A stretch of 63,202 bases of DNA from a virus (Duplodnaviria > Caudoviricetes), in IMG/VR virus record IMGVR_UViG_3300010222_000004, positions 1 to 63,202 of that record, one strand, 5' to 3'. Positions 2-63,090 of the stretch are shown one piece after another (position 1 is the first letter of the stretch; every line of letters begins with the position of its first letter). The position numbers and the translations under genes are program-made. The notes under the pieces were generated by a model, which did not search any database, was not told the origin of the DNA, and saw only the letters and a program-made list of their open reading frames with translations.

Positions 2-856
2 CCCTCAACCCACCGCCCCGAGAACGCGCCCGACATGACCGACTACCGGGCGACAGTCGAGGACATGGGCGAGCACCCCGGCGAGTACGTGACCTCTCGC
101 CTTGAGGCCGAGGAGATCGACAAGAACGCTGGCGAACTGCTCCGCCGGCTGTCCGGCTTCACAGAGGACGGCGAGATGCGGGCCGTCACCGGGCAGAGCG
201 AGGCCGGGATCTCCGCCGCCGGCGTGACGTATCTGGACCTCCAGCAGATCGAAGGCCTCGGCGGCGCGGCCGACAAGTCCACGACGCTGATGTTGATGTT
301 GGGCCAGGTGTATCAGGCGATCAAGCGCTCGCCCGGGGAGGCCGTCTTCGTGATCGACGAGGCGCACTACCTGCTTCAGTCCGAGGAGATGCTGGCGTGG
401 CTCCAGCAGGCGGCCCGGCATTGGCGGCACTACGACGCTGGGCTCTGGTTTGTGAGCCAGCACCCGGATGACTTCGTCGAAGGCGACACCGAGGCGATCC
501 AAGAGCACCTCGACGCGATTCGCGGGCAGACGACCGCGACCACCTTCTTCGCCACCGACGACCTCGGGGACGCGGCGGCCGAGAAGTACGGCCTGAACGC
601 GCCCCAGCGGACGTATATCCGCGCCCGGGCGAACCGCGGCGAGGACGACGTCGGCCATACGGATGCCCTGATGGCCTGGGAAGAACGGGAGGGGTGGCAC
701 CACGTGCAGGTCCGCCTCCCGCCCCTGGAGTTGGCCGTAATCGAGTATGACCCGGCGACCCACGGCGACTTCATCGAGTACCTGCGGCGGACGTGGGAGC
801 GCCACCAGCGACAGGCGCGTGCGGCCGGGCGGGCCGCCGGAGGTGATCGGGCGTGA
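2..856 (+). CDS. VirB4-like/HerA-FtsK family conjugation ATPase, C-terminal part (5' end outside window)
   Basis: Walker B VFVIDEAHYLL and WFVSQHP motif; frame open from window start; GTGA overlap with next gene. Confidence 0.75.
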   Translation, partial: PSTHRPENAPDMTDYRATVEDMGEHPGEYVTSRLEAEEIDKNAGELLRRLSGFTEDGEMRAVTGQSEAGISAAGVTYLDLQQIEGLGGAADKSTTLMLMLGQVYQAIKRSPGEAVFVIDEAHYLLQSEEMLAWLQQAARHWRHYDAGLWFVSQHPDDFVEGDTEAIQEHLDAIRGQTTATTFFATDDLGDAAAEKYGLNAPQRTYIRARANRGEDDVGHTDALMAWEEREGWHHVQVRLPPLELAVIEYDPATHGDFIEYLRRTWERHQRQARAAGRAAGGDRA

Positions 857-3800
857 ACGTCCTTGACCGTCTCCGGGCGACCCACGACGAAGAGCGGTCG
901 GGATACGAGGCGGCCCGGGTGTCCGAGAGCCTCGCCGATCACCTCGCCGGCACCGTCGATCGCAACGCCGTCACCGTTCGGCCGGACAAGGACAACGGCG
1001 GGATTGAGGCGATGGACGAAGTGCTGGAGGCACTGCATACGGTTGAGACGACGTCGCCGGCGCTCCGCAGCGAGACGCAGAACGTCAGCCCTGCCCACGC
1101 CTTCGAGATGCGGTACGCCGCGCCCGATCCGGCGAGCGAGCGCGTGGTAACGCTCCAGTACGTCCCCGGATCGGACGGCCTGGCCGGGACGCTCCGCCGC
1201 CAACTCCAAGGCCAGTATCCGGACTCACACGTCGACACGACGACTGCCGACCTGCTCCCCGCGGTGGGGCCCCGCGCCGATCGGGACAGGGACGGCGATT
1301 CCGAGCGGTACGTCGCTGGCGCGACCCTCACGCTTCGGCGCTACACGCTCTACCCGATCAAGAACGTCGACCTCCCAGGGTTCCGGTCGGATCCGACCGG
1401 GAGCGTCCTAGAGGAAATGGTCGGCGCGCAGGAGGACGCCGACACGGGCGCCGACGTCGCGGTGCAAATCATGTTCAAGCCCGCGCGGCGGACGTGGACG
1501 CAGGGCGTCCCGGAGGGCCACGGGACCGCCGACGCCGGCGACGAGCGGATCACCGGCGCGCCGGGAATTAGGGACCTGTCGTACAACCTGACCCAACCGA
1601 CCTACGAAAAGAGTCCGCTCCCGGCAGGGACGATCCCCGGCCTCGGGTGGATTCCGAAGGTCGGCTACGAGGTCCTTGAGCAACCGCCGACGAAGGTCGA
1701 CAAACAGGTGGCGACGCTCCTCGAGGAGCAACAGGGCGAGAAGGGCTGGCGGCTCTGCCTGCGCGTGCTCGCCGTCAGCGCCGATCCCGAGGTGGCGGTC
1801 GACCGCGCGGCGAAGACGGCCGGGATGTTCCGGAATTTCTACGAAAGCAACACGGAACAGACGTTCGTCCCGGAGCCGCTCACCGGCGACGCCTTAGCGG
1901 ACGCCGTCGAGCGCGCCGGCCGCCGCGAGTTCCACGAGCAGGGGATCGTCAAAGCCCAGCGCGAGGTAGCGGGACTCGTGAACGTGCCGGCGGCCGAGCA
2001 CGTCACCACGAACAAGCTCCGGTGGTCGATGTCGAAGCCCGGCGAGGGGATCCCGCCGGGGACCCCGCGGTTCGATTTTGACGGCCACGGCGTGCCGGCG
2101 GACGCCAGCACAGAGGAGCGCCAGGTAGCACTGCTTGACGCGGCCGAGGCCGAAGCGCCGTACTGGTACGGGATCGGCGCGCGCCACGGCATCGAGGCGG
2201 GGATCGACGTGGCCGGGATCACGAACCCACACAAGTTTGTTCACGGGGAGTCCGGGACGGGGAAAACGACCTTCTTGGCCGGCGATATTGCCCAAGATCT
2301 CGCCCGTCCCGGCGGCGGGCTCCGGCTGGATCCGACCGGCGACGACGTCGACGACTGGCTCGCGGAGTGGCCCGCCGATCGTCCCGCCGAGGATCTGATT
2401 TACATGGACTTGAGCGGTGACTTCGACCGGATCCCGCGGTTCAACTTCTTGGAGATCCCCGACTACTTGGAGCCCGGCACCCGAGAGTTCGTGGAGTTTC
2501 TAGAAGCGCTGGCCGAGGACATTCTGGAGATGGTCGGGGTCGCCGGCGGATCGGATAACTACGTTGGGGGGCTGATGAAACGGATCGTGAAGACCGTCGT
2601 TCGGGCGATGGGGAAGTTCGATGAGCCCGCCACGCTGTACGACGTCGCCGTCGTCTCGTCCGCCTCGGAGAACCTGGAGCGGCTGGCCAACCGCCTGAGC
2701 GCCGAGCGATACGAGGAACTAACCCACCTCCGCGACCGGATCCAGCAGCTCGCCGAGCACGAAGATAAGAACCTCGACGCTCTCGCCGGCCGCCTAGATG
2801 AGTGGGTCCTGAACGATAACGTCCGAGAACTGATATGCGCCCGGGACCCCACGTTCAGCGTACAGGACGCGGTCGAACAGGGCACGGAGATTTTCGTCCG
2901 GTTCAGCGACTCCGGAAGCGATACGGTGAAACACATGATCGGGAACGCACTCATCACCCGGACGTACTTCGCGCAGCGGCACCACCGGCCGGACGCGCCG
3001 TTCAGTCTGACGGTGGACGAGGCACAGTCGATCATCACCTCGGCCAGTGACATTGAGACGATTATGGATCAGGGGCGGAAGTTCAACTATCGCGTGACGG
3101 TCGCTTGTCAGCGCCCGGCCTCGCAGCTCCCCGACGGCGTCCGGGAGGCGATTCTGGGCAACGCCCGGACGGTGATCTCTTACGCCGCGGGGCGGACGGC
3201 CGAGGCGAAGGCGGTGGTTGACCAACACGACGGGATCGACGCCAGCGACCTCGTCAATCTCGGCCCGTTCACGTTCTACGTGTCAACCGAAGACGCCGAC
3301 CGGAACCCGACCCACTCGTACAAGGTCAACGCCTTTCGCGCCCCGTCATCGGCGCGGGAGATGATCGGGGACCCGGCCCCAACGGACACGGAGGCGCTGA
3401 AGGAGCGCTCCTTGGAGACGTACGGCGTGACTGCGGCGGCCGTGGACGACGGCCGGAGTATCCTCGACGAGCCGCTCCCCGGGGCCGATCCCGGAGCGGG
3501 CGTCTCCGAGGAGCTGACCGTCACCGACGCCGTCGAACGCGCAGTCGTGCAAGGCGTCTACGACACTGCCTGCCGGGCGGGCGACCCGTCGGGGAGCGTC
3601 CCGCTCGGCGACTGTCGCGCGGCGATCATTCGTCGCGTGGCGCGGCTTGATGCGACGCCCGACCGGGCAACGCTCGACGACGACCTCGCAGCCGACGGCG
3701 ACCTGTGGCGCCAGCTCATCCAGCACGTCCCCGACGATCTCCTCGAGATCCGAGAGCGCGACGGGGCGCCGGCACTCCGGGCGACGTCGCCGCGGGCGAC

Positions 3801-4860
3801 GCTCGCGACCGTCGGCGGCGATCAGAGCGCCGGCGGCGCGGGCCACGGCCTGCTCATGTGGGCCGCCTACGCGCCGCTGACGTGGGCCGGCCTTGACGTC
3901 GAGATCCTCGACGCGAGTGGCGACGACCCCGACGCGCTCGTCCGCCCCGCGCCCCCCGCGGAGCAGCACGCGCCGGCGCTCGTCAAGCGGCTGACCGGCG
4001 GCGACGTCGCGCGGCTCGAAGCCGAGCACTCGACCGGACGGAGCAAGCCCGGCATGACCGCCCAGCACGTCCTCCAGGCGGCGACCGAGGGCCGGCAGGC
4101 CGTCGTCCTCGCCCGCCCTGGCGACGCCGCAAACGTCGCCGACACGCTTCGCGCAGCGCCCGCCTACTGTCGGTCGGATCATCCCGTCGATGGCGAGGTG
4201 CGCTACTACACCTCGCCGCGGGACGTCCGCATCGGCGGCGCAGTCATGACCCGCCCCGGCGGTCGCGCGAATGCGTGGGTCAAAGACGAGGCGACCGGCG
4301 AGGTCGTCCTTCGCGACGGGAGCGGGACCGAGTACGCCCGGTTCGAGGATGCCGGCGCGGTGTTTACCGACGCCGGTTCCTACCCACCGGAGGGCGACCG
4401 GACGGTGAAGCAGCCGATCATCCCCGAGATCATTCTTGACGAGGGGGCCGTCGACCCGCACGTCGAGATCCTCGAGGTTCCCGAGGGGGCCGACGAGCTG
4501 GCCGACCTGTCGCTCCGGATCGGGACCGACATGACGGTCTCCGCCGACGCGGTCGGGAGCGAGGATCGGGACGCCGTCGATCACTCGGCCGGGGGCGGCG
4601 AGGAGATCCCCGCGCCGGACGACCTTGACGTCCCGGCGACGGTCGCGCGGTTCTACGACCACTTCCAAGACGTGGCCGAGGCCGACGGAGGAGTATCCGT
4701 CAAGGAAGCCCAGGATCTCGCGGCCGCCAGCGGCGATCCCAAGCTTGACGTGTCGCGGCGGGCCATGCAGGACTGGCTGTCGGCCCTGGTCGACCAAGGC
4801 GCGCTCCGGAGAGAGGACGGCGACCACGCCGCCGATCCGACCACCTACCATCCCCGCTGA
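853..4860 (+). CDS. VirD4/TraD-like coupling ATPase with C-terminal putative PD-(D/E)xK-like and wHTH regions
   Basis: Walker A GESGTGKT, LDPTGD, Walker B LTVDEAQ, ACQRP; distal GH...DPDAL...LEAEHST and terminal HTH-like VSRRAMQDWLSALVDQG. Confidence 0.75.
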   Translation: MNVLDRLRATHDEERSGYEAARVSESLADHLAGTVDRNAVTVRPDKDNGGIEAMDEVLEALHTVETTSPALRSETQNVSPAHAFEMRYAAPDPASERVVTLQYVPGSDGLAGTLRRQLQGQYPDSHVDTTTADLLPAVGPRADRDRDGDSERYVAGATLTLRRYTLYPIKNVDLPGFRSDPTGSVLEEMVGAQEDADTGADVAVQIMFKPARRTWTQGVPEGHGTADAGDERITGAPGIRDLSYNLTQPTYEKSPLPAGTIPGLGWIPKVGYEVLEQPPTKVDKQVATLLEEQQGEKGWRLCLRVLAVSADPEVAVDRAAKTAGMFRNFYESNTEQTFVPEPLTGDALADAVERAGRREFHEQGIVKAQREVAGLVNVPAAEHVTTNKLRWSMSKPGEGIPPGTPRFDFDGHGVPADASTEERQVALLDAAEAEAPYWYGIGARHGIEAGIDVAGITNPHKFVHGESGTGKTTFLAGDIAQDLARPGGGLRLDPTGDDVDDWLAEWPADRPAEDLIYMDLSGDFDRIPRFNFLEIPDYLEPGTREFVEFLEALAEDILEMVGVAGGSDNYVGGLMKRIVKTVVRAMGKFDEPATLYDVAVVSSASENLERLANRLSAERYEELTHLRDRIQQLAEHEDKNLDALAGRLDEWVLNDNVRELICARDPTFSVQDAVEQGTEIFVRFSDSGSDTVKHMIGNALITRTYFAQRHHRPDAPFSLTVDEAQSIITSASDIETIMDQGRKFNYRVTVACQRPASQLPDGVREAILGNARTVISYAAGRTAEAKAVVDQHDGIDASDLVNLGPFTFYVSTEDADRNPTHSYKVNAFRAPSSAREMIGDPAPTDTEALKERSLETYGVTAAAVDDGRSILDEPLPGADPGAGVSEELTVTDAVERAVVQGVYDTACRAGDPSGSVPLGDCRAAIIRRVARLDATPDRATLDDDLAADGDLWRQLIQHVPDDLLEIRERDGAPALRATSPRATLATVGGDQSAGGAGHGLLMWAAYAPLTWAGLDVEILDASGDDPDALVRPAPPAEQHAPALVKRLTGGDVARLEAEHSTGRSKPGMTAQHVLQAATEGRQAVVLARPGDAANVADTLRAAPAYCRSDHPVDGEVRYYTSPRDVRIGGAVMTRPGGRANAWVKDEATGEVVLRDGSGTEYARFEDAGAVFTDAGSYPPEGDRTVKQPIIPEIILDEGAVDPHVEILEVPEGADELADLSLRIGTDMTVSADAVGSEDRDAVDHSAGGGEEIPAPDDLDVPATVARFYDHFQDVAEADGGVSVKEAQDLAAASGDPKLDVSRRAMQDWLSALVDQGALRREDGDHAADPTTYHPR

Positions 4861-4864
4861 TTGG

Positions 4865-4962
4865 GTTCCAACGGCGACCCGCGAGCGCGCCGTTGGAACG
4901 CCTCGCCGTGGCCGTTGGAAGCCGCGCCGTCCTGTGATCTCCCCCGTTGGACGCCGTTGGAA
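4865..4962. repeat. CCGTTGGA iteron array with 12-bp inverted repeat (oriT/operator candidate)
   Basis: GTTCCAACGGCG (4865-4876) / CGCCGTTGGAAC (4888-4899); direct CCGTTGGA at 4890, 4912, 4944, 4954. Confidence 0.75.
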
Positions 4963-5019
4963 ACGCCGAAGGAAATGGGAGGCACCGACGCGACACACAG
5001 CCAGCCGCTGATACCCTAC

Positions 5020-6617
5020 CTTCTACAGCGAGAGAGTCCCGCCGTTCACGGCGGGCGTGAATCGCGCCGGCAGAGAATACAACCGCCGTCTATTGCCGGC
5101 CGGGGGTCTCCTCACGGACGCGCTTCTCGCCTTCGAGGAGCAACCCCTTCCACGTTAATCCGTGGTGCTTCTTCAGTTCCTTCAGTCGCTCGTACTGTTC
5201 ATCGTCATCGAACTCTATCCGTATCTCTACCACATCAACCACACATGAACGACGTGTTTATGTGTATTGCGGTGCTACGGATGATTGATGAAACGGACCA
5301 ACACGTTCGACGTGGTTCCTCAGTCCGAGCAGGACGAGGAGTTGCTTCGGCGTCTGTTGGACGCTTCTGCCGCGCTCTGGAACGAAATCAACTACGAGCG
5401 CCGCGAGAACTACGCCGACCCAGACGCCGACGTGTGGGACATCAGCGAATATCGCGGACGCTACGGTGGCACGCTCGGTGCGTCAACCGTTCAGCAAATC
5501 GAACGGAAGAACCGCGAAGCGTGGCGGTCGTTCTTCGCATTTCAACAGAAAGGCGAGGCCAACGGCAAGCCCGGATACTGGGGCAACGCCGAGGACGGCC
5601 GCGAACTCCGCACGTACATTCGGAACACGTCGTACTCGGTCAAGTGGGGCGAATACTCCCGACTCGAAATACTCGTCGGCCAAGACCTGAAAGAGGAGTA
5701 CGGTCTTGGACACCGCGAGAGGCTTCGGCTTGAAGTCCGGGGAGACCCCAACTGGACGGAATACGACAAACAGGGTCGGTTAGAACTGTACTACGACGAC
5801 AACGCACAGACATTCAGGGCCTTTCAGCCAGTCACTATCGACACTTCTCGACTGGCACACCCACTGGCGGGCGAAACCGCCGCGCTGGATATTGGTGCGA
5901 ACAACCTCGTCGCCTGTACAACGACGACCGGCACGCAACTACTGTACGAAGGGCGCGACCTGTTCGAGCGGTTCCGCGAGACGGCGCGAGAAATCGCCCG
6001 GTTGCAGTCGCTCTTGAACGACGGCCAGTACAGCAGTCACCGCATCCGGCGGCTGTACGACCGCCGAACCAAACGACGCAACCACGCCCAAGACGCGCTC
6101 GCCCGCGACCTCATCGAACGGTTGCACGGCGAGGGTGTTTCGACAGTGTACGTCGGGGCGTTAACGGACGTGCTGGACACGCACTGGTCGATCGAAGTGA
6201 ACGCCAAGACGCACAACTTCTGGGCGTTCCGGCAGTTCATCGACCGACTCGCGTGTACCGCCGAGGAGTACGGTATCACGGTCGAAGTCCGCTCGGAAGC
6301 GTGGACTTCCCAAGAGTGCCCGAACTGCGGGTCGACCGACCGAACGACGCGCCACCGAGACACGCTGACGTGTCCGTGCGGCTTCGAGGGCCACGCGGAC
6401 CTCACCGCAAGCGAGACGTTCCTGAGACGGCAGACGACAGTATCACGGCCGATGGCACGGCCTGTGCGCCTCAAGTGGGACGACCATTCATGGTCAGAGC
6501 CACCACGCTCTTGTCCCAACGAGGAGCGCACGAACCCGCAAGTTGCCTCCGTGGGACCGGCATAGCCGAGACCCCCAGCGTGAGGAAACCTCGGCGTTTA
6601 CGCCGGGGAGGATGTCA
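5020..6617 (+). mobile_element. IS200/IS605-family (IS1341-type, tnpB-only) element
   Basis: Left hairpin CCCGCCGT-TC-ACGGCGGG (5038-5055), right hairpin CCTCGGCGT-TT-ACGCCGGGG then AGGATGTCA; ends approximate. Confidence 0.8.
5288..6565 (+). CDS. tnpB: RNA-guided endonuclease TnpB
   Basis: RuvC-I AALDIG, Zn finger CPNC...CPC, RuvC-III HADLTAS. Confidence 0.92.
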
Positions 6618-6640
6618 TGCGGTGCCAATCCCCTGCTGCT

Positions 6641-6700
6641 GTTGCACCAGCAGATACAACAAGAGTTAAGTGGTTGGGTGTTGTAGTAGCAAATGCAACA
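6641..6700 (+). promoter_or_regulatory. Promoter (TTAA box) with GTTG(C/T)A / T(A/G)CAAC operator repeats
   Basis: TTAAGTGGTTGGGTG at 6666-6680, identical 15-mer at 60644-60658. Confidence 0.55.
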
Positions 6701-6713
6701 GAGGAATACCACA

Positions 6714-8147
6714 ATGGCTGCACCCAACGTCACTCTGGACGGCGACGAACTGACCATCGAGATCACCAAAGGCAACAAGCAGTGGGTTGCCGAAATCACC
6801 GGTACAGACGCCCAGTACGACCTTGACCGGAATTTCGTCAGCCCGTACGGGCGGGGGACGGAAACCGTCGCGGTCGAGACCGGCGACATCATCGAGCGCG
6901 TCTATTACAGCCACTCCGGCAACGAGAAGGGTCGCGTCTACTGGATCGTCCACGAGGGCGAGCTGGTCGAGATCGATCAGGACAACGTCGACGACGCGCT
7001 GGAGACTCCCGAACGCTACTACCCCGAGCCCGAAACGCACGAGTGCGAGGAGTGCGGCGACGAATTCGACAGCGAGCACGGCCTCGCTGTCCACGACGGG
7101 CGTGTCCACGACGACAGCGACGACACGGCCGGGAGCGAACCCGAAGGCAGTGCCGATGCAGAAGACATGTCAGTTGCAGTTGCCGATGGCGGCGTTATGA
7201 CCGACGGCGGCGATGAGACGGATTGGGATCTCGTCGCCGGCGACGAACCGAGTCGCAACGGTACGCGCCGAATCGTGACTGCCGACGAAGCTCGGACGCC
7301 ACACACTGGTCGGTCAACGCACTATGACCAACTGCTCGGGGTCACGATGGAAACCGGGAGTGAATATACCGGCGACACGATCCAGTATGTTCGCATCCGG
7401 CCGCAGGTTCCCACGCGAGCGCGGGGGGCGACCGGGACTGAATGGCTCTGCCGCCTTGCTGTTGACCAAGGAGACTACGACGATCTCTACGGGGACAGGG
7501 ACGCTGACGACCCGCTCCCAGCCTATCAGCCAGAGACGACCGGAGACTACCGCGACGCCGACCCCGAAGACCCCCGCGGGGACGGCGTCTACGTGCGCGA
7601 CGATGCAGACTCGCCACTGACGGCGGAGATAGCGGATGTTGTCACGCGCGAGGGGGGCCGCATCCCGATAGATTTCTCGGCGGCGGTCCAAAATGAGGGA
7701 TACGCACGGAGCCGCGACTGGACGGTCTACGCGCCTGCTCACAACCCCTATCATGTCGCCGCGGCAGTAACCGACGTGCTGCGCGATGCTGCCGGCGTCT
7801 CGGAGATCCGCGTGCATGTCTCGGACAAGCCGGCGTCGCGGATTGCCAGTGACCTCCGGGCAACGGGAATCGGATACATCTTCGACCGAGACGACGAGGC
7901 CGACCGCATCGAGCGGTCACTCCGAGAGCTGCGGTGGGAGTCTGGCCTTCCGGTCGGCCGGCAGCGCATCCTCCAGAGTGTCCCCAGCGAGGCACGCGAG
8001 CGAGTGCAGGAGGCTGACTTTGACGGTCAGATGGCAGACTACGAGTCAGAGCTCCGCACCGTACACCAGCGTCCCGGCGACGCCTGGGACTACCACGAGG
8101 TCCACATCCATATCAGCGAAGAGGCCGCCGATCCCTACTACGGATAA
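6714..8147 (+). CDS. Hypothetical multidomain protein with C2H2 zinc finger
   Basis: ECEECGDEFDSEHGLAVHDGRVH; acidic ORF; alternative start 6693. Confidence 0.75.
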   Translation: MAAPNVTLDGDELTIEITKGNKQWVAEITGTDAQYDLDRNFVSPYGRGTETVAVETGDIIERVYYSHSGNEKGRVYWIVHEGELVEIDQDNVDDALETPERYYPEPETHECEECGDEFDSEHGLAVHDGRVHDDSDDTAGSEPEGSADAEDMSVAVADGGVMTDGGDETDWDLVAGDEPSRNGTRRIVTADEARTPHTGRSTHYDQLLGVTMETGSEYTGDTIQYVRIRPQVPTRARGATGTEWLCRLAVDQGDYDDLYGDRDADDPLPAYQPETTGDYRDADPEDPRGDGVYVRDDADSPLTAEIADVVTREGGRIPIDFSAAVQNEGYARSRDWTVYAPAHNPYHVAAAVTDVLRDAAGVSEIRVHVSDKPASRIASDLRATGIGYIFDRDDEADRIERSLRELRWESGLPVGRQRILQSVPSEARERVQEADFDGQMADYESELRTVHQRPGDAWDYHEVHIHISEEAADPYYG

Positions 8148-8656
8148 TGACCGACGACCATACCACCACGTTCCGCGTCGAATTTATCAGCGGCGAGACA
8201 GTCGATATGGAGTTCGGAAATGGGGCCGCCGAGTCCCTCCGGGAGCTGCTCCCGCAGGCAACGACGATGCTTGGCTGTCCCGACTGCGGCAATCTCGTCC
8301 CTGTGACTGGCGGTATTCCAAAGCGGGAGATGCCCCGGTGTGCACACTGTGAGGACGAACTGACTGGTGTCACGGAGGTCCACGAGCTTCACCAGGCGGG
8401 GGAGACACTGATCAGTCAGACGGCAACTGAAGACTGGCGCGAGCGGGCAGCACAGCTTTGCGAGCACGGCGTCCCTGAGCAGCGTGCGAACGTGGTCGCG
8501 CTCCGGGAGCAGGGTCGCTCTTACAGCGAGATCGCAGCAGAACTCGAGTTTGGAGAGGACGGCCGTGACCGATCGCAGGTCACGTATCACATTGACTCGT
8601 ATCGCGAGCAACTCTCGAATTCCGAGTGGCTCGTACAGCACGCCCCGGATATCTAG
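8147..8656 (+). CDS. Zn-ribbon + HTH DNA-binding protein
   Basis: CPDC...CAHC and GRSYSEIAAEL. Confidence 0.7.
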   Translation: MTDDHTTTFRVEFISGETVDMEFGNGAAESLRELLPQATTMLGCPDCGNLVPVTGGIPKREMPRCAHCEDELTGVTEVHELHQAGETLISQTATEDWRERAAQLCEHGVPEQRANVVALREQGRSYSEIAAELEFGEDGRDRSQVTYHIDSYREQLSNSEWLVQHAPDI

Positions 8657-8914
8657 TCGCCGCATCCGTGTCTCCTCGGCGACAAGCACTCGGCGAATGG
8701 CAGCCCCGAGCGTGGGGCAGTCCTCCGGTGCTTAACTGTTATCAGGCGCTAAGTCTCCTTCCTCAACGAGTGCCGGGTTTCCGACACGGGTCGGAAGCAC
8801 AAGCGAGTAGGGAGGGGATACAGCGCCGTCATCGTCTGTCTTACGTGCGATACTGCCGGCCCACAGGCCCACGAATCGACACACTTTTGTCTATCCATGG
8901 TCTATACAATGGTA

Positions 8915-9061
8915 ATGGATCGGTTCGAAATCGACGGCCACGAAGTTCTCGACGGCACCGCAAAACCGTCGGGGAATAGTGCCCACGTCATCGTTCCAAA
9001 GCGGTGGCGGGGGGCCGACGTGAAGGTCGTCCGCGTTTCCGAACCCGATTCAGACGAGTAG
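8915..9061 (+). CDS. DUF2080-like transposon-associated small protein
   Basis: MDRFEIDGHEVLDGTAKPSGNSAHVIVPKRWRGADVKVVRV; not in ORF track (48 aa). Confidence 0.8.
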   Translation: MDRFEIDGHEVLDGTAKPSGNSAHVIVPKRWRGADVKVVRVSEPDSDE

Positions 9062-9071
9062 TCCACCGTTT

Positions 9072-10310
9072 ATGCGGTACAACTACAAGCACCGACTCAT
9101 GCCGTCCGAAGCCATCCGCAAGGCGCTTCAGCGGCACATCGATGTGTGTCGGCAACTGTACAACCACTGCCTCTACGAACTCAACGAATCCGACGACGGT
9201 ATCCCAGAGCGCTACGACCTCCAAGGGCAACTCCCCGACCTCAAACAGTGGTGGACCGACCTGAACGACGTTCACTCGAAGGTGCTTCAGATGGTCGTCA
9301 AGCGCGTCTATGACAATCTTTCGACGCTCAAAGCTCAGAAAGAGAACGGACGCGCCGTCGGGATGCTCAAGTGGAAGCGGCCTCGGGACTACCGTTCACT
9401 CACCTACAACCAGACCGGCTTCAAGCTCAAGAATACGAGCGGTCGGCCTACGTTGTGGTTGAGCAAGATTGGCGACGTACCGATCCGGCTTCACCGCGAG
9501 ACCCCCGACGATTCGACAGTGAAACAAGTCACGGTCAAACGCGAGCCCACGGGCGACTGGTTCGCCGTCCTCGGGATCGAAACCGAAGACGATGCACCAC
9601 CCAAACCTGAGCCCGCCGAGACGTACGTCGGGATCGACGTTGGTGTCCTGAGGTACGCCCACGACACCGACGGCCACTCGTTCGATGGTCCCGACCTCTC
9701 CGATGAACGCGAGCGGTTGGAACGCGCCCAACGCAAGCTTTCGCGGAAGGAAGCCGGGTCGAACAACTGGGAAAAACAACGCAAGACCGTCGCCCGGCGA
9801 CACGCCGACCTCAAACGGAAGCGCCGCGACTTCCTACACAAGCTCTCGGCGTACTACGCTCGGGAATACGACCTCGTAGCGGTCGAAGACCTCGATGCAA
9901 AGGGCTTGGTCGAACTCCCGGGCAACTCTCGCAACCGCGCCGGAGCGGCATGGGGGACGTTCCTGCGGATGCTTGAATACAAGTGCGAACGCGAAGGAAC
10001 GCACTTCGTTGCGATCGATCCGGCAGGGACGACCAAAGAGTGTGCTGAGTGTGGCGTCGAAACCGAAAAACCGCTGTGGGTGCGCGAGCACTCCTGTCCG
10101 AGTTGTGGGTTTGAGGTGGACCGGGACCTCAACGCGGCGTACAACATCCTTTCTCGCGGACTCGAACAAGTAGGAGTGGATCACTCCGAATCAATGCCTG
10201 TGGAGACTGCGCTCCCTACGGGGACTCATTCGGTTCCTGCACAGCGCGTCGTTGAACCAGGAAGCCCCGCCCTCAAGGAAGCCGCGAAGCGGCTGAGTAG
10301 GGCGGGGTAG
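9072..10310 (+). CDS. tnpB: RNA-guided endonuclease TnpB (canonical D-E-D)
   Basis: GIDVG, AVEDL, DRDLNAA, CAEC...CPSC. Confidence 0.95.
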   Translation: MRYNYKHRLMPSEAIRKALQRHIDVCRQLYNHCLYELNESDDGIPERYDLQGQLPDLKQWWTDLNDVHSKVLQMVVKRVYDNLSTLKAQKENGRAVGMLKWKRPRDYRSLTYNQTGFKLKNTSGRPTLWLSKIGDVPIRLHRETPDDSTVKQVTVKREPTGDWFAVLGIETEDDAPPKPEPAETYVGIDVGVLRYAHDTDGHSFDGPDLSDERERLERAQRKLSRKEAGSNNWEKQRKTVARRHADLKRKRRDFLHKLSAYYAREYDLVAVEDLDAKGLVELPGNSRNRAGAAWGTFLRMLEYKCEREGTHFVAIDPAGTTKECAECGVETEKPLWVREHSCPSCGFEVDRDLNAAYNILSRGLEQVGVDHSESMPVETALPTGTHSVPAQRVVEPGSPALKEAAKRLSRAG

Positions 10311-10315
10311 TTCAC

Positions 10316-10343
10316 CCAACAGGCTGTATCGTGTGTTGGTTAA
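10316..10343. repeat. TTAACCAACA/TGTTGGTTAA palindrome copy A (split by IS; first TTAA at 8732-8735)
   Basis: CCAACAGGCTGTATCGTGTGTTGGTTAA. Confidence 0.8.
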
Positions 10344-10370
10344 CACCGCCGTCGGACAGATCCACGGCTA

Positions 10371-10428
10371 GTCGCTCATGGACCGACTGGCCGGCTTGCG
10401 GCATCGCTTCGCCGCCGTGCGGCCCGTC
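10371..10428 (+). repeat. 58-bp direct repeat, partner at 62949-63006
   Basis: 50/58 identical; last 26 bp ATCGCTTCGCCGCCGTGCGGCCCGTC identical. Confidence 0.85.
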
Positions 10429-10467
10429 GACGAGTAGCGTATACAGGGATCTATCATCTTCGGGCTA

Positions 10468-11085
10468 TTACTCCTTGAGTGCGTTTTCGGCCGACCGCTT
10501 TCGGTCGTTGACCGTCTGCCGGCCAACATCCCGGACATCGGCCCACTGGCGCTGATTGAACCCACCGGGAGCAACCTGAGTCTGCCAGTAGTCCAGCGCG
10601 TCCGCGTCCGACTCGGTGGCGCGAGCGAGCACTGCCAGCTCCGCACTGGCGACCTCTCGGCCAAGCTCGATGGGGTCCGGAGTCCCGCCCGTGACGCGAC
10701 CATCGAACAGCATGTGCCACGACGACCCAGTGGCAGCGTCGTACTCCGCAAGCATTCGAACATCGCCGTCCGCGTAGACCTTGACAGCCAGCGATGTCCA
10801 CTCCGTTCTGGCGCGAACCTCATCGTACCGCCGGTGAGCGGCGACATCCGGCCGCATCTGGTTATCCCCGCGCTTTGCGCCGCCGTGCCGCTCGACGATG
10901 TCGTAGATCTCGAACCAGGCGTCCCACCAGGCGTCGTCTTGTTGGATGTCGATCCAGCCGCTCCCCACCGACTCCTCCATAATCATGTCATCCGTGACCT
11001 CAAGCTCCGGAACGTCAACGCTCGCGATCTCGTGAACGGCCTGAGCGAGGTCGCGGACAGCCGCCATGTGATCGGAGGCAGTCAC
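10468..11085 (-). CDS. Hypothetical protein with C-terminal HTH-like segment
   Basis: FNQRQWADVRDVGRQTVNDRK; GTG start overlaps upstream TGA. Confidence 0.65.
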   Translation of the reverse strand: MTASDHMAAVRDLAQAVHEIASVDVPELEVTDDMIMEESVGSGWIDIQQDDAWWDAWFEIYDIVERHGGAKRGDNQMRPDVAAHRRYDEVRARTEWTSLAVKVYADGDVRMLAEYDAATGSSWHMLFDGRVTGGTPDPIELGREVASAELAVLARATESDADALDYWQTQVAPGGFNQRQWADVRDVGRQTVNDRKRSAENALKE

Positions 11086-11671
11086 GCGAGGTATTCCTCC
11101 GGGTCGACTTGCGCGTACGGCGTCCAGGTCCCGCCGAGATCCATAATGCACATCGAGCAGTATTCCTCGTCAGCCTGCCGGAGCATCACCTCGCAGCGGC
11201 CGCAGATGGCGTCCGCAGTGACCTCGTATTCGTCGCCGGTCCACAGGTCCTCGATGATGTGGACCTCCTCGCCATCCTCGAGAGCCTGCTCGTCATCGGT
11301 TCCGCTGCCGGTCGTCGCTGCGTTCTGGCTCTTGCCCTCGTTGTCGGCGTCGGTCTCCTCGGCCTCCAGGTCCCGTCCAGCGACCAGGTCAACGACCAAA
11401 ACGACGTTCTCGTGGCTCTCGCCGTGCTCTCCCACCGCGAGACGATCGTCGCGACGCCGTCCTCAACGATCATCTCCAGGTCCTTGTTTTCGCAGACGAT
11501 CTCGCCCGCCTGGAGGTCGATGTAGGTGTCGCCGCTGCGGGGGATAGCGTGGTTGATCGCGGCGTCGACGTAAATGCGATCGTGACCGTATTTCGTCCAG
11601 CGGTCGATCGTTGCATCGCCGTCGGATTCGATCAGTTCCGGGTCGTCCGCGAGTCCGGTGAGGTCGGGCAT
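11082..11671 (-). pseudogene. Frameshifted hypothetical gene with C-terminal Zn finger
   Basis: Acidic frame MPDLTG...VSRWE continues in another frame as EHGESHENVVLVV...CGRC...CSMC; 1-nt loss near 11430. Confidence 0.6.
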
Positions 11672-11785
11672 GGTCTGTCTCTCCAACTGTACGTTATAGA
11701 CGTACGGTAATAAATGTTGCGTGCTGAGTACGCTATTAACGTACAGGGGTGTGTCTGCTGGTTCCCCGCGCGGTTATCGCCCAGC

Positions 11786-11818
11786 TTAACCAACAGGCTG
11801 GCGTCGTGTGTTGGTTAA
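11786..11818. repeat. TTAACCAACA/TGTTGGTTAA palindrome copy B (13-nt spacer)
   Basis: TTAACCAACA-GGCTGGCGTCGTG-TGTTGGTTAA. Confidence 0.85.
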
Positions 11819-11866
11819 GACTGTCTCGCCCCGCATTGCAGCGGTCTCCGCCGAGGGGACGCCCAG

Positions 11867-12208
11867 TTATCCGTCGTCCGACTCGGGGTCGGGCATCCCC
11901 GTGACCCACCACTTCGCGCGGGTGAGCACGCCGGCGGTCTCTTTCATCCGCTCGCGGTCCTCGCGACGCCGTTGCATCTGGCGCTCGTCCTCGACGTACG
12001 CGACGAGCTCCTGGTGCTCGTCGACGCGGCGATTGGTCGCGGCCAGCTCGCGCTGGAGGCGGTCGACCTCGGCCTCGAGGTCGTCGTGGTCTTGGCCTTT
12101 CTGGATCAACTCCCGGACGACGTCGGACACCGACGTGCCGCGCTCCTCGGCGAGCGCTTGCAGGTCCTCGTAGGTCTCGTCTGAGACGCGCGCGGAAATG
12201 GATTGCAT
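11867..12208 (-). CDS. CopG/ribbon-helix-helix protein with coiled coil
   Basis: MQSISARVSDETYEDLQALAEERGTSVSDVVRELI then heptad-rich helix. Confidence 0.85.
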   Translation of the reverse strand: MQSISARVSDETYEDLQALAEERGTSVSDVVRELIQKGQDHDDLEAEVDRLQRELAATNRRVDEHQELVAYVEDERQMQRRREDRERMKETAGVLTRAKWWVTGMPDPESDDG

Positions 12209-12210
12209 GG

Positions 12211-12290
12211 GTGTCTACGCTCGTAGACGGCTGTAGACGATGTGAGACGGGTGTCTACGCGCCGTCTACCATGCTATACACGCGTCTACA
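12211..12290. repeat. 10-bp-phased GTCTAC/GTAGAC array
   Basis: Hexamers at 12213, 12223, 12233, 12253, 12264, 12284; degenerate at 12244, 12274. Confidence 0.8.
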
Positions 12291-12472
12291 AAAAGATACG
12301 GCAGCCGCCCGTCAGACGGGTTGCTCGCGGGGCGCCCGCTCCGGGCAGTTGACTGATATAGCCGGAGGCCCGCCCGTCGGCTCGCAGAACTCCAGGCGGG
12401 CCTGCGCGACGAAGAGAGCTAGTCCCCGGTGTAGCGCCAAGTATACCAGTAACCGATAGGTCCCTTCGTCAG

Positions 12473-20969: not shown

Positions 20970-21149
20970 ATGAGCACCACCGAGCAGACGTGGTTCACGA
21001 GCCCGCAGGGCACCCTCGTCCGCGGTGACGTGATCAACCGCGAGACGGTCGCGAGCGCCCGCGATGGCGTGCGCGAGCAACTCACGATTGAGCACCGCGG
21101 CGCCCGCTTCCGCGTCGAGCGCCCCCTCGGCTCGCCCACCGAGTCGTAA
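20970..21149 (+). CDS. Small hypothetical protein
   Basis: MSTTEQTWF (59 aa); stop lies in palindrome C. Confidence 0.5.
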   Translation: MSTTEQTWFTSPQGTLVRGDVINRETVASARDGVREQLTIEHRGARFRVERPLGSPTES

Positions 21150-21187
21150 CCAACACTCGGCGCCGTCGCCCACCGAGTGTTGGTTAA
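21146..21187. repeat. TAACCAACA/TGTTGGTTA palindrome copy C (22-nt spacer)
   Basis: TAACCAACACTCGG...CCGAGTGTTGGTTA perfect 14-bp inverted repeat. Confidence 0.85.
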
Positions 21188-52863: not shown

Positions 52864-54597
52864 ATGGCTAGTTCGCTACAGGTCCCGGATCCTCGCGAGA
52901 CCATTGAGTGGGACATCCGAGACACCGTGACCGTCGAGCCGGGGGCGCCGATCCCCCTGGAAAGTCACACACGCGTCGAGTTACAGCCCGGGGGGCATCG
53001 GCTGACGAGCGATCACGTCAATAACGACCTCGCGCACTACCGCCTGCTGGGCAGTGGCGCGGACTGCGTCGTCGAAACCGGCGGCAATCACAGATGGCTC
53101 GTCAAAGCCTTCGGCGCCCCCGGCCCCATTGAGATCGGCGGCTTCGTCTGCGACTACGGCGCGGAAACAGACACCTCCGGCGCCGGCATCAATCTCGCGC
53201 CGACGGGCCCGCTGTGGGTCCACGACATCCGGTGGGCGGGCTTCACGCCGGCGGAGGAGACTGGCGACGACTGGAAGTGCAACGTCCGGATCAAGGCTGA
53301 CGCCCCGGGCTGGGTCGAGCGCGTCGAAAGCATCGGCGGCGCTCACATGGGCGGCCATCTCGACGGCAAGGGAATGGGCATCGTCGATTATCATCACGAG
53401 GGGACGTTCTATTTCCGCGACAACTATATCGAGGAAGAGCCAGGGGATACGCCGTGGTACACGCAGGGCCACGGCGAGAACCACTTCCTCCGCTGCTACC
53501 ACGTCAATAACGCGATGGCGAACTTCCGGATCGGCGGGCAGTCCTCGGTCCGGGACTGCGTGAGCGTCCAAGACCACGACGCGATTGACGAGTACACCGG
53601 TGAGTTCAACGCCGCCCACGACTGTCTCGTCGCGACGCAGATCAACCACAATCAGACCGGCGCGGTCATCGAGGGCTGCGAGTTCATCTGCCGGTCGACG
53701 GACACGTCGTCGACGTCGATCCGGACGCATCTCACGAGTGGCGACGTCACGATCCGCGACACGCGCATCCAGCACGATGAGGGCCGACCCTTCATTCATA
53801 AAAACGCCGACTACGGCGCCCACAAGTACCAGTGGGTCGACGGCGAGGACAGCGCCATCCACTGGGCGGGCGTCGATATTAGTGGGGCCGCCGGCGTCGA
53901 GCACGTCTTCGACCACGACCGCCGCGAGTTCTGCACGGTGGCGGAGTCGTGCATCGAAATCGACCACGAGACGCTCTGCACCGGGGATGGCACCGACATC
54001 TCCGGGCTCGAGACGAGCGGCGCGGAGCGCCCGACCGACCACGACCCCCGCGCAGCGACGCCCTTCGAGAGCGATCCAGCCATGCCAGACGAGACACCCA
54101 CCGACGACGGCGACAGTACCGACTCCGCACCGAACCCCTATCCCCACACGTTCCAGATTGAGGGAACCGGCGACCGCGCGACGTGGCGCGTCGTCGTTGA
54201 CGGATCGTTGACCCACGATTCGGCGCAGGGGACCAACGACTCGGAGGATACCTTCGGGACGACCGAAGCGAATGGCGTCGTCCTCTCGGGGACCGACGGC
54301 GGGCGCTTCAGCGGCGAGATCACCGCGCTCGAACTCGACGGCGACGCGACCGTCTTCGTCGACGGCGACGAAGTCGACCCCGCCGAGTACGGTGGGGCCG
54401 ATGGCGACGCGAGCGACGGGTCGGATGAGTCGGACGGCGCCGACAGTCCTGACGACTCGGATAGCAGCGGCGGGGGCGACGAGGCCGACGACGGCAGCTC
54501 GCCCAGTGATGGATCGACTGCCCCGGACCGTGACGTCGCGCTCGAGGACATCACGCTCGCCGACGTCGCCGCGCTCGTGCAGCAGCGCGACAGTTAA
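52864..54597 (+). CDS. Beta-helix-like protein with acidic low-complexity C-terminus
   Basis: Repeated beta-helix-like strands; D/S/G-rich linker. Confidence 0.65.
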   Translation: MASSLQVPDPRETIEWDIRDTVTVEPGAPIPLESHTRVELQPGGHRLTSDHVNNDLAHYRLLGSGADCVVETGGNHRWLVKAFGAPGPIEIGGFVCDYGAETDTSGAGINLAPTGPLWVHDIRWAGFTPAEETGDDWKCNVRIKADAPGWVERVESIGGAHMGGHLDGKGMGIVDYHHEGTFYFRDNYIEEEPGDTPWYTQGHGENHFLRCYHVNNAMANFRIGGQSSVRDCVSVQDHDAIDEYTGEFNAAHDCLVATQINHNQTGAVIEGCEFICRSTDTSSTSIRTHLTSGDVTIRDTRIQHDEGRPFIHKNADYGAHKYQWVDGEDSAIHWAGVDISGAAGVEHVFDHDRREFCTVAESCIEIDHETLCTGDGTDISGLETSGAERPTDHDPRAATPFESDPAMPDETPTDDGDSTDSAPNPYPHTFQIEGTGDRATWRVVVDGSLTHDSAQGTNDSEDTFGTTEANGVVLSGTDGGRFSGEITALELDGDATVFVDGDEVDPAEYGGADGDASDGSDESDGADSPDDSDSSGGGDEADDGSSPSDGSTAPDRDVALEDITLADVAALVQQRDS

Positions 54598-54635
54598 CCA
54601 ACAGTCGCCGGCCACCGGCGGTCTGTGTTGGTTAA
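54594..54635. repeat. TTAACCAACA/TGTTGGTTAA palindrome copy D (22-nt spacer)
   Basis: Overlaps stop codon of last late gene; between convergent units. Confidence 0.85.
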
Positions 54636-61946: not shown

Positions 61947-62453
61947 ATGATGCCCGACCAGACCAACGACGTGGCGCTCGCGGCACGAGCATCCACGCCC
62001 GACGAGTTGCGCGCGGCGTACTACGGGGCTGACCGCGAAGGCGTGCTGCAGGAGGCCGGCGAATCCGTCCTTGAGCGGCTGCTGACGCCGGACGCTCGCG
62101 TGCGGATTCTCGATCAGTTGCTCCAGCATCCGGCGACGGCCATGTCCGTCTCCCAGATCGTGAGCGGGACCGATATGTCCCCGTCCACGTTCCACCGGCA
62201 TCGCGAGGCGCTGCAGGACCTGGGTGTCCTGCTCGAAGACGAGAAGGTCGGGAACGCGCAGACCTACCGGCTGCACGTCGATCATCCCGTCGTGCAGCTG
62301 CTGGCCATGCTGTCGGCCGTCACGACCTGGGGCAGCACGCAGCAGCTCCTTGCTGACGAGTGGATCGGTGACGGCAGTAGCGATGAGACTCCCGACCTGG
62401 AGGCACTGCTGGCCGAGCGCGGGGTTGAGGACGACCTGCCGGGAACCGAGTGA
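61947..62453 (+). CDS. ArsR-like winged-helix regulator
   Basis: ARVRILDQLL...MSVSQI...STFHRHREALQDLGVL...GNAQTYRL. Confidence 0.8.
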   Translation: MMPDQTNDVALAARASTPDELRAAYYGADREGVLQEAGESVLERLLTPDARVRILDQLLQHPATAMSVSQIVSGTDMSPSTFHRHREALQDLGVLLEDEKVGNAQTYRLHVDHPVVQLLAMLSAVTTWGSTQQLLADEWIGDGSSDETPDLEALLAERGVEDDLPGTE

Positions 62454-62731: not shown

Positions 62732-62948
62732 ACCATATACTACGATACAGAACTATGCCACTGCGTAGTGAGAGCAGAGCCGAGGCCGAGGTGCAGCACT
62801 CCGGGGCAGAGACACTGCAGCCCACCAAGTGGCTCAAACGACTGGTATCAGACCCTCACGCCGAGGAAGAAGACGCCTGCGATGAGTGTAGTCGGTGCGG
62901 CACTTGGTAGTTGTCGAATACACCAAAGTACACACTCTGATACGAACG

Positions 62949-63006
62949 GTCGCTTGAGGACTGGCTGGCCGACTCGCGGTATCGCTTCGCCGCCGTGCGG
63001 CCCGTC
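62949..63006 (+). repeat. 58-bp direct repeat, partner at 10371-10428
   Basis: 50/58 identical. Confidence 0.85.
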
Positions 63007-63057
63007 AGCAGGACGTGACTATCAGGACAGATCAGCATGCGGTTATCGCCCCAGCGC

Positions 63058-63090
63058 TTAACCAACAGACCATCCGCCAGTGTTGGTTAA
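63058..63090. repeat. TTAACCAACA/TGTTGGTTAA palindrome copy E (13-nt spacer)
   Basis: Preceded by GCGGTTATCGCCC as is copy B. Confidence 0.85.

Follow-up and report, generated by a model that had tools for sequence, protein, structure and literature searches.

A tnpB-only insertion sequence at the TTAA of a dispersed palindrome in an apparent haloarchaeal virus, and the likely reach of its predicted guide

In the IS200/IS605 family, the TnpB nuclease takes its guide from the flank 3′ of the right end of its own element, and its transposon-adjacent motif (TAM) is the target tetranucleotide of the insertion. What, then, would such a nuclease recognise when its element lies inside a dispersed repeat? 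The question is raised by IMG/VR virus record IMGVR_UViG_3300010222_000004, analysed here as one linear window (positions 1–63,202, the whole record; completeness estimate 78%), in which a 1580-bp element of the IS200/IS605 family, IS1341 type (8736–10315, plus strand; a DUF2080 gene and tnpB, no tnpA), interrupts one copy of a palindrome that recurs in the window. A first-pass annotation had proposed that this RNA-guided nuclease is aimed at the repeat family. We consider it quite probable, instead, that the element is an ordinary tnpB-only insertion sequence (IS) that landed at a palindrome TTAA, that its guide acts on the empty site and serves homing, and that the matches to sister palindromes are by-products.

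The insertion can be read from the DNA base by base. GCTTAA (8730–8735) is followed at 8736 by the start of the element (CTGTTATCAGG...), which stops at 10315 (...GGGGTAGTTCAC), and CCAACAGGCTGTATCGTGTGTTGGTTAA lies directly to its right (10316–10343). Joining 8735 to 10316 yields a full palindrome, TTAACCAACA-12 nt-TGTTGGTTAA (palindrome A), with the junction TTAA|CCAACA and no bases duplicated; in the restored copy, pairing extends outside the arms (GGTG-C-TTAA ... TTAA-CACC). TTAA at 8732–8735 (plus strand) is the outer end of the left arm of palindrome A as well as the target and presumptive TAM tetranucleotide, and the remainder of the palindrome (CCAACA, the 12-nt spacer and TGTTGGTTAA) occupies 10316–10343. 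The sister palindromes read TTAACCAACA unbroken, and they prove that TTAA is part of the target, not of the element, something that relatives of the element could not show. Since deletion of 8736–10315 restores the palindrome exactly, as the first-pass annotation had noted, there is no target-site duplication; terminal inverted repeats are absent too, since neither of the ends, CTGTTATC... and ...GTAGTTCAC, repeats the other in inverted form. This combination is the hallmark of IS200/IS605 transposition: a target tetranucleotide 5′ of the left end, with neither inverted ends nor a duplication. Contigs of the one run containing the virus span both junctions with zero differences.

The element ends were compared with those of relatives from a protein-seeded scan of one genome per species, which gave 80 haloarchaeal loci with 65–81% protein identity. 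The terminal 20 nt on the right of the element, with 4 substitutions at most, recur in 63 of the 80 loci and in none of 4 distant viral loci, and directly after ...GTTCAC the flanks of the relatives are unrelated from locus to locus. A plasmid relative, annotated as a transposase and a DUF2080 protein side by side, aligns to query bases 1–1580, exactly end to end, with 76.6% identity, so that the alignment agrees with the ends first proposed. At the left end, the core motif AGGCGCTAAGTCCCC is conserved and could be located in 67 of the 80 loci. The tetranucleotide before it was TTAA in 35 of these, TTAC in 11, TTAG in 3, TTAT in 3 and another in 15, which makes TTAN in 52 of 67; where the left end is of the CTG type, as in the window, TTAA directly precedes it in 29 of 38. 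The background of TTAA in the relatives' loci is 0.6 per kb. Judging from these insertion sites, we are confident that TTAA is both target and TAM of the element's subfamily.

Both ends of the element can fold into hairpins. The subterminal one on the left (8745–8827, plus strand) has a predicted DNA fold of −20.3 kcal/mol (z-score −2.89, 2 of 200 shuffles as good), the fold of the right end, with its hairpin at 10264–10308, has −19.0 kcal/mol (z −3.09), and a C-rich stem is common to the two (...CCnCCCTCAA ... GAGTAGGGnGGGG). Subterminal hairpins of this kind are the structures recognised by the Y1 transposase in the IS200/IS605 family. No match to Y1_Tnp (PF01797) was found in the window by a search that was positive in 6 of 14 control genomes, including Haloferax volcanii, and only 336 nt precede tnpB, leaving no room for tnpA. 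The missing Y1 (HUH) TnpA fits the non-autonomous IS1341 group and not a complete IS605 element.

The gene upstream of tnpB (8897–9061, plus strand) encodes a 54-amino-acid DUF2080-family transposase-associated protein (NCBIfam NF033496, 64.1 bits against a cut-off of 22; Pfam PF09853, 17.4 bits, under the cut-off of 21.5). The tnpB gene itself (9072–10310, plus strand) encodes an RNA-guided endonuclease of 412 amino acids, apparently intact as judged by Pfam (OrfB_IS605, Cas12f1-like_TNB and HTH_OrfB_IS605), by NCBIfam (guided_TnpB, 292.6 bits against a cut-off of 100) and by alignment to the solved chains of ISDra2 TnpB (8bf8/8h1j, E 2e-35). Residues D189, E272 and D352 stand opposite D191, E278 and D361 of the ISDra2 chain, the RuvC D-E-D, and two CxxC pairs at 324 and 342 supply the zinc-finger cysteines. 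The protein thus looks catalytically intact, and the element is apparently a functional tnpB-only (IS1341) insertion sequence of the IS200/IS605 family.

A predicted omega-RNA scaffold (10158–10315, plus strand) overlaps the 3′ end of tnpB, reaches the right end and includes the hairpin at 10264–10308. RNAalifold, applied to the last 230 nt of the element in 61 sequences, predicted 33 pairs, 9 of them with compensatory double changes, a conserved structure such as is expected of an omega-RNA scaffold. A search of 4800–12300 against Rfam, at E up to 1, returned no family at the 3′ part of the element. In 9 relatives (L017, L026, L028, L029, L034, L038, L043, L044 and L078), extra self-complementary inserts of ~50–57 nt occur at three places in the omega-RNA/tnpB 3′ coding region; they resemble hairpins gained within the open reading frame (ORF).

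The predicted guide, CCAACAGGCTGTATCG (10316–10331, plus strand), lies directly 3′ of the conserved right end and equals the inner left arm plus spacer of palindrome A. Its length of 16 nt is borrowed from other TnpBs; the available text of a recent preprint states it for Ymu1 TnpB (bioRxiv 10.64898/2026.01.09.698545). From position we infer with confidence that the guide of this copy would be CCAACAGGCTGTATCG and its TAM TTAA. The first-pass annotation had placed both in the same way, with a TAM of about TTAA and the guide 3′ of the right end, and the conservation of TTAA in the relatives and the confirmed right end support it.

Where in the window could such a guide find a match? The exact pattern TTAACCAACA-N5-25-TGTTGGTTAA occurs in 3 copies (B, D and E) and in none of 100 shuffles, and the palindrome arm with at most one mismatch has 11 occurrences where 0.46 would be expected; the right arm of A and a further copy, C, are gained in this way. 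Palindrome B lies at 11786–11818 (hairpin z −4.33). Palindrome C (21146–21187) has a 22-nt spacer and the left arm GTAACCAACA, which reads GTAA, its TAA being the stop codon of ORF 20970–21149; palindrome D (54594–54635) also has a 22-nt spacer and provides the TAA stop codon of ORF 52864–54597, and palindrome E (63058–63090) has a 13-nt spacer. The predicted hairpins of the four intact palindromes (B–E) all fold far better than shuffles (z −4.3 to −6.6).

All 309 TTAN sites of the window were scanned on both strands for guide matches. At B, 11 nt match contiguously behind TTAA (11786–11800; 11/16 overall, guide positions 12–16 being mismatched); at D and E, 7 nt match contiguously behind TTAA (9/16 overall); the opposite-strand arms of A, B, C, D and E give 6 nt, and the best match outside the palindrome family is 5 nt. 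The numbers for B, D and E are those that had been proposed. The length of the match at B is explained by the history of the two copies, because A and B are near-duplicates, with the spacers GGCTG-TA-TCGTG in A and GGCTG-GCG-TCGTG in B.

The surroundings of these copies are related as well. The DNA right of A (~10368–10430) is homologous to the 3′ end of the gene preceding palindrome E, and B and E have the same upstream sequence, GCGGTTATCGCCC. Compared with 62940–63057, the stretch 10344–10440 is a shortened duplicate of the 3′-terminal part of the gene before E, and 11762–11785 shares GCGGTTATCGCCC. The A–B segment has the appearance of a partial E-locus duplicate that was rearranged and interrupted by three minus-strand genes, with palindromes at its mosaic junctions.

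Is the nuclease, then, aimed at the family? The landing in a palindrome requires little explanation. TTAA is under-represented in the window, with 32 sites against ~60 expected from base composition; 2 of the 32 lie in the other IS of the window, and because 9 of the remaining 30 backbone sites (28% of all 32) are within palindromes, a landing in one is expected by chance in a fair share of cases. A TTAA-seeking insertion would meet a palindrome in about 30% of cases, and in the inward-reading orientation in about 15%. The relatives provide no sign of a preference for TTAA|CCAACA, for which a survey had been suggested: none of 68 has a guide starting with CCAACA, and their right-end flanks have no common motif. 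Among 401 Halobacteria genomes, neither the right-end-plus-arm word nor the palindrome-plus-left-end pattern was found (0/401 each), these being exact patterns that can miss diverged junctions. The 16-nt right-end-plus-arm word did match 4 IMG/VR and 101 JGI metagenome stretches (from 241 million metagenome records); 104 of these 105 matches are chance occurrences in unrelated DNA, and in the remaining one (L198) a true right end is followed by DNA other than the palindrome.

One could nevertheless imagine that the TnpB–omega-RNA complex acts on the palindrome family after landing there, cutting sisters in the virus or in competing elements and thereby driving homing, deletion between A and B, or interference. 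The TnpB looks catalytically intact, TTAA is followed by an 11-nt seed at B and by 7 nt at D and E, and seeds abound in mobile elements, as 132 of the 201 Halobacteria genomes sampled, and 60 IMG/VR stretches, contain the TTAA-CCAACA palindrome. However, what the family shares with the guide is its first 6–7 nt only, the spacers being hypervariable, and insertions of the IS family show no leaning toward the palindrome. For homing into B, homology in the flanks would be required, and this is limited to the palindrome itself. B is moreover intact in the virus, and no deletion between A and B was seen in contigs. Of the runs considered, among which no RNA run contains the stretch, one, probably from the source sample, contains 0.92 of the window words and eight others ≤0.09; in the contigs of the four runs compared, no joint removes 8736–10315 (excision) or 10344–11790 (the deletion for which a search had been proposed), although rare forms would escape a comparison of contigs only. 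The small joints that do occur in run contigs lie inside the IS at low depth; their source is other organisms with related copies of the IS.

The length of the matches also argues against cutting, since other TnpBs need ~12–16 bp for efficient cleavage. For Dra2 TnpB this heteroduplex length is cited in the available text of the above preprint, which also describes stable, cleavage-incompetent binding when mismatches lie beyond approximately position 8, and near abolition of cleavage by Ymu1 TnpB through one mismatch at position 10 (bioRxiv 10.64898/2026.01.09.698545). For ISDge10 TnpB, the accessible part of the report gives binding without indels with a 10-nt guide, and indels that drop from 14 nt downward (PMC13507860). 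The 11 bp plus five mismatches at B thus plausibly fall where the complex binds but cuts little or not at all, and the 7 bp at D and E, a seed only, would be expected to make transient contacts. We therefore regard action of the nuclease on the palindrome family as improbable. The odds of a chance landing, the absence of a preference among relatives and genomes, the duplication of A and B and a match of 11 bp that is too short together leave the original proposal of a nuclease aimed at a dispersed repeat without its footing. Most likely, the relation between guide and palindrome is an accident of their common TTAA, and the most that might follow from it is binding, as a side effect, at a single sister copy.

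Could this side effect matter? Bound to B without cutting it, the complex might act as a roadblock or repressor at a conserved, putatively regulatory site ~100 nt upstream of the minus-strand gene 11186–11686, and such binding would be a natural half-step toward TldR-like RNA-guided repressors. Guides or matches of 8–10 nt are described as binding stably without cleavage for ISDge10 and Dra2 TnpB, as far as the available texts go, and the palindromes of host islands are promoter-proximal. The omega-RNA is a predicted one and B a candidate regulatory site, though, and any effect would be accidental, as the guides of the family are otherwise unrelated to the palindrome; we give a regulatory by-product of this sort a rather poor chance. 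TldRs are described, in the portion of the literature available, as nuclease-dead, domesticated, RNA-guided TnpB-like repressors, and the likeness to the window consists in an RNA-guided TnpB-family protein with a guide matching a promoter-proximal site. The window TnpB is not itself a TldR, given that D189, E272 and D352 are all kept and the transposon is intact. That the element is a fixed, immobile, domesticated tnpB whose guide was selected to recognise the palindrome, as the lack of tnpA in element and window might suggest, is hardly credible in view of ends that retain the family hairpins and boundary motifs, an intact catalytic triad, a DUF2080-plus-tnpB-only architecture common to dozens of copies at unrelated sites, and an insertion found only in this record in IMG/VR and metagenome searches.

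The explanation that we favour, an ordinary insertion with a guide against its own empty site, would run as follows. The element would have inserted 3′ of TTAA, the target tetranucleotide of its subfamily, by means of a Y1 transposase presumably supplied in trans, since neither the element nor the window encodes one. By chance, this TTAA was the one that closes the left arm of palindrome A on its outer side, A being one copy of the family TTAACCAACA-N-TGTTGGTTAA. The omega-RNA would run from the 3′ part of tnpB over the right end into the flank and take the flank as guide, and it is from this course that CCAACAGGCTGTATCG as guide and TTAA as TAM would follow. The sole perfect target would then be an IS-free palindrome A, whether left by excision or carried by a sibling genome that lacks the IS and shares the cell. 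Were this empty site cut and repaired from the IS-bearing copy, the element would be retained or spread, a course of events demonstrated for bacterial TnpBs. B could plausibly be bound by the complex without efficient cutting, and D, E and the opposite arms would receive transient seed contacts; the matches to sister palindromes (11, 7 and 6 nt) would exist because the element landed in a repeat.

Several points weigh against this explanation. TTAN at a fixed offset from the left end is missing in 15 of the 67 relatives, although several of these look like anchoring shifts of 1–2 nt. The guide and the 3′ end of the omega-RNA are predicted from sequence, and the TAM comes from insertion sites. 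Homing in this virus is an inference: an IS-free allele of A was not found, as the nearest relative virus (G001) has no palindrome there and IMG/VR contains no exact copy of the 28 nt that form the right part of A. Finally, the length thresholds come from three bacterial TnpBs, and with a haloarchaeal enzyme on negatively supercoiled DNA in high salt 11 bp might suffice. We also see a slim chance that the guide does two things at once, cutting, at co-infection, every IS-free sibling with an intact palindrome A, so that the IS would spread in the manner of a gene drive, and docking without cleavage on B, where it could perturb a regulatory site. If true, the locus would be a natural snapshot of a transposon nuclease first gaining an RNA-guided regulatory side effect, on the way toward TldR-like repressors.

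How does the element compare with known systems? ISDra2, whose TAM is TTGAT, is an element of Deinococcus radiodurans with structures in the Protein Data Bank (PDB 8bf8, 8exa and 8h1j). The window element has a TnpB of the same family, with the RuvC D-E-D and zinc-finger cysteines, and likewise a structured RNA overlapping the 3′ end of tnpB, a target tetranucleotide 5′ and a guide 3′, and no inverted ends or duplication. It differs from ISDra2 in being haloarchaeal, in lacking tnpA, in its extra DUF2080 gene, in its presumptive TAM TTAA and in having no Rfam match. IS1397 targets repeated extragenic palindromes, the enterobacterial BIMEs (bacterial interspersed mosaic elements), with a family-wide preference. 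The window element likewise lies within a dispersed palindrome, but with none of 68 relatives and none of 401 genomes repeating this arrangement, the hit is explained by TTAA.

Closer to home, IS1341-type transposase genes are highly expanded in halophilic archaea according to the available text of a Haloquadratum survey, which ascribes to these elements near-terminal palindromes, no target duplication and a targeting sequence of 4–6 bp (PMC3119063). The haloviruses phiH1 and ChaoS9 are described in the accessible text of their reports as carrying IS200/IS605 elements, ISH12 (ISH1.8) (PMC6210493, PMC6471424). ISH12 in these viruses consists of tnpA and tnpB, whereas the window element consists of the DUF2080 gene and tnpB. 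The best match of the window TnpB in a cultured phage has ~34% identity; the nearest copies of the element are in haloarchaeal chromosomes and plasmids, with 65–81% protein and ~77% nucleotide identity. Sense-overlapping structured RNAs at haloarchaeal tnpB 3′ ends, the Halobacterium sotRNAs/omega-RNAs (RF02656 and RF02657), are described in the available part of another report (PMC12558985). The structured RNA of the window element lies likewise at the 3′ end of tnpB, yet it gave no match at E ≤1 to these two families or to HgcC (RF00062).

The window has a G+C content of 64.8%, and its ORFs encode a large terminase subunit, a Mu-F-like head protein, a tape-measure protein and tail proteins, as well as small HTH proteins (8147–8656 and 61947–62453). 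The nearest terminase is that of Haloarchaeal virus HJTV-4 (43% identity), and the close relatives of the window TnpB (9072–10310) are all from Halobacteria; on these gene contents we therefore assign the window to an uncultured haloarchaeal tailed virus. G001, the nearest relative virus, is 94% identical over window positions 6700–8682 and has different genes beyond 8682. At the start of the record (35–853) there is a VirB4/TraC-like ATPase fragment, with weak matches far under family cut-offs, followed by an ORF of 1335 amino acids (853–4860) without a family match. This content (35–4860) is odd cargo for a tailed virus and could be a plasmid-like module or the mark of a chimeric record.

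A second, unrelated tnpB-only element lies at 5020–6618 (TnpB at 5285–6565, 426 amino acids, guided_TnpB 137 bits). G001 is uninterrupted at its position and provides the exact empty site (...CCCTAC|GCGGTGCC...), from which a tetranucleotide of the CTAC type can be placed 5′ of the left end. The 3′ end of this element accounts for the sole match of the Rfam search, a weak one to HgcC (RF00062; 24.1 bits, E 0.024, below the gathering score of 50).

What is the palindrome itself? Of the 60 IMG/VR stretches with an exact copy, 54 are in DNA of at least 50% G+C, and the spacers in these 54 measure 22 nt in 31 cases, 21 nt in 9, 23 nt in 8, 20 nt in 3, and 13, 11 and 9 nt in one each. The Halobacteria genomes that contain it have 1–30 copies each, mostly clustered on secondary contigs; a reversed control pattern was found in none of the 201. 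The arms are invariant, the spacers are hypervariable, and the two spacer classes (~11–13 and 20–23 nt) are one helical turn apart. Because of these three features, the pattern speaks for the site of a protein that binds DNA as a dimer, and against a transposed copy or a hairpin alone; it is probably a binding site of a widely shared protein.

The surroundings of the palindrome were analysed with our own, crude gene calls. In 42 resolvable loci (viral loci and first genome loci), it lies between tandem genes in 35, between convergent genes in 7 and between divergent genes in none, and in viral loci the gene upstream often ends on a stop codon within the palindrome. Of 10 copies in three host islands rich in the palindrome, 5 lie between divergent genes; the islands encode Orc1/Cdc6, family B polymerase, ArdC-like, AbiEi and PadR proteins. 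A terminator or a REP-like (repetitive extragenic palindromic) role, which the viral loci suggested, is weakened by these divergent contexts. An integron attC site was also considered and rejected: no recombinase was found among the 59 window ORFs scanned (E ≤0.001), most of the 20–23-nt spacers are not self-complementary, and the copies are 1–40 kb apart.

In 11 viral loci, the palindrome is adjacent to an Orc1/Cdc6-like gene. The exact palindrome is also found upstream of 8 of 30 genes for HVO_2833_C tandem winged-helix proteins, 81–90 nt before the called start in 7 of them and 23 nt before it in the eighth, and at these loci a small divergent ORF has its ATG ~20 nt away from the palindrome. 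HVO_2833_C genes (L280–L293) have another inverted repeat, TGTAACACTACTCGAAACTT...AAGTTTCGTACTATGTTACA, ~10–60 nt upstream, which flanks a box resembling a TATA element with its transcription factor B recognition element (BRE/TATA-like); this repeat is likely an autoregulatory operator, distinct from the TTAACCAACA palindrome. A literature search with TTAACCAACA, TGTTGGTTAA, AACCAACA and keywords, which did not extend to subscription journals and supplements, found no description of the palindrome, and the available text of the phiH1 and ChaoS9 papers (PMC6210493, PMC6471424) does not mention it.

The element is of a type already known, abundant in halophilic archaea and present in haloviruses, and the finding is of modest importance: a cleanly resolved insertion of a TnpB element in an archaeal virus, with a sister repeat that gives the exact pre-insertion site. 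What it yields is a confident, if deduced, TAM (TTAA) and guide for a haloarchaeal TnpB subfamily with a little-studied DUF2080 gene. It also calls for caution in similar scans, as a guide that matches a repeat arises trivially when the repeat contains the target tetranucleotide of the element. The palindrome, a motif for which we found no description and which recurs in viruses, plasmids and genomic islands across Halobacteria, may be worth more than the insertion that led to it.

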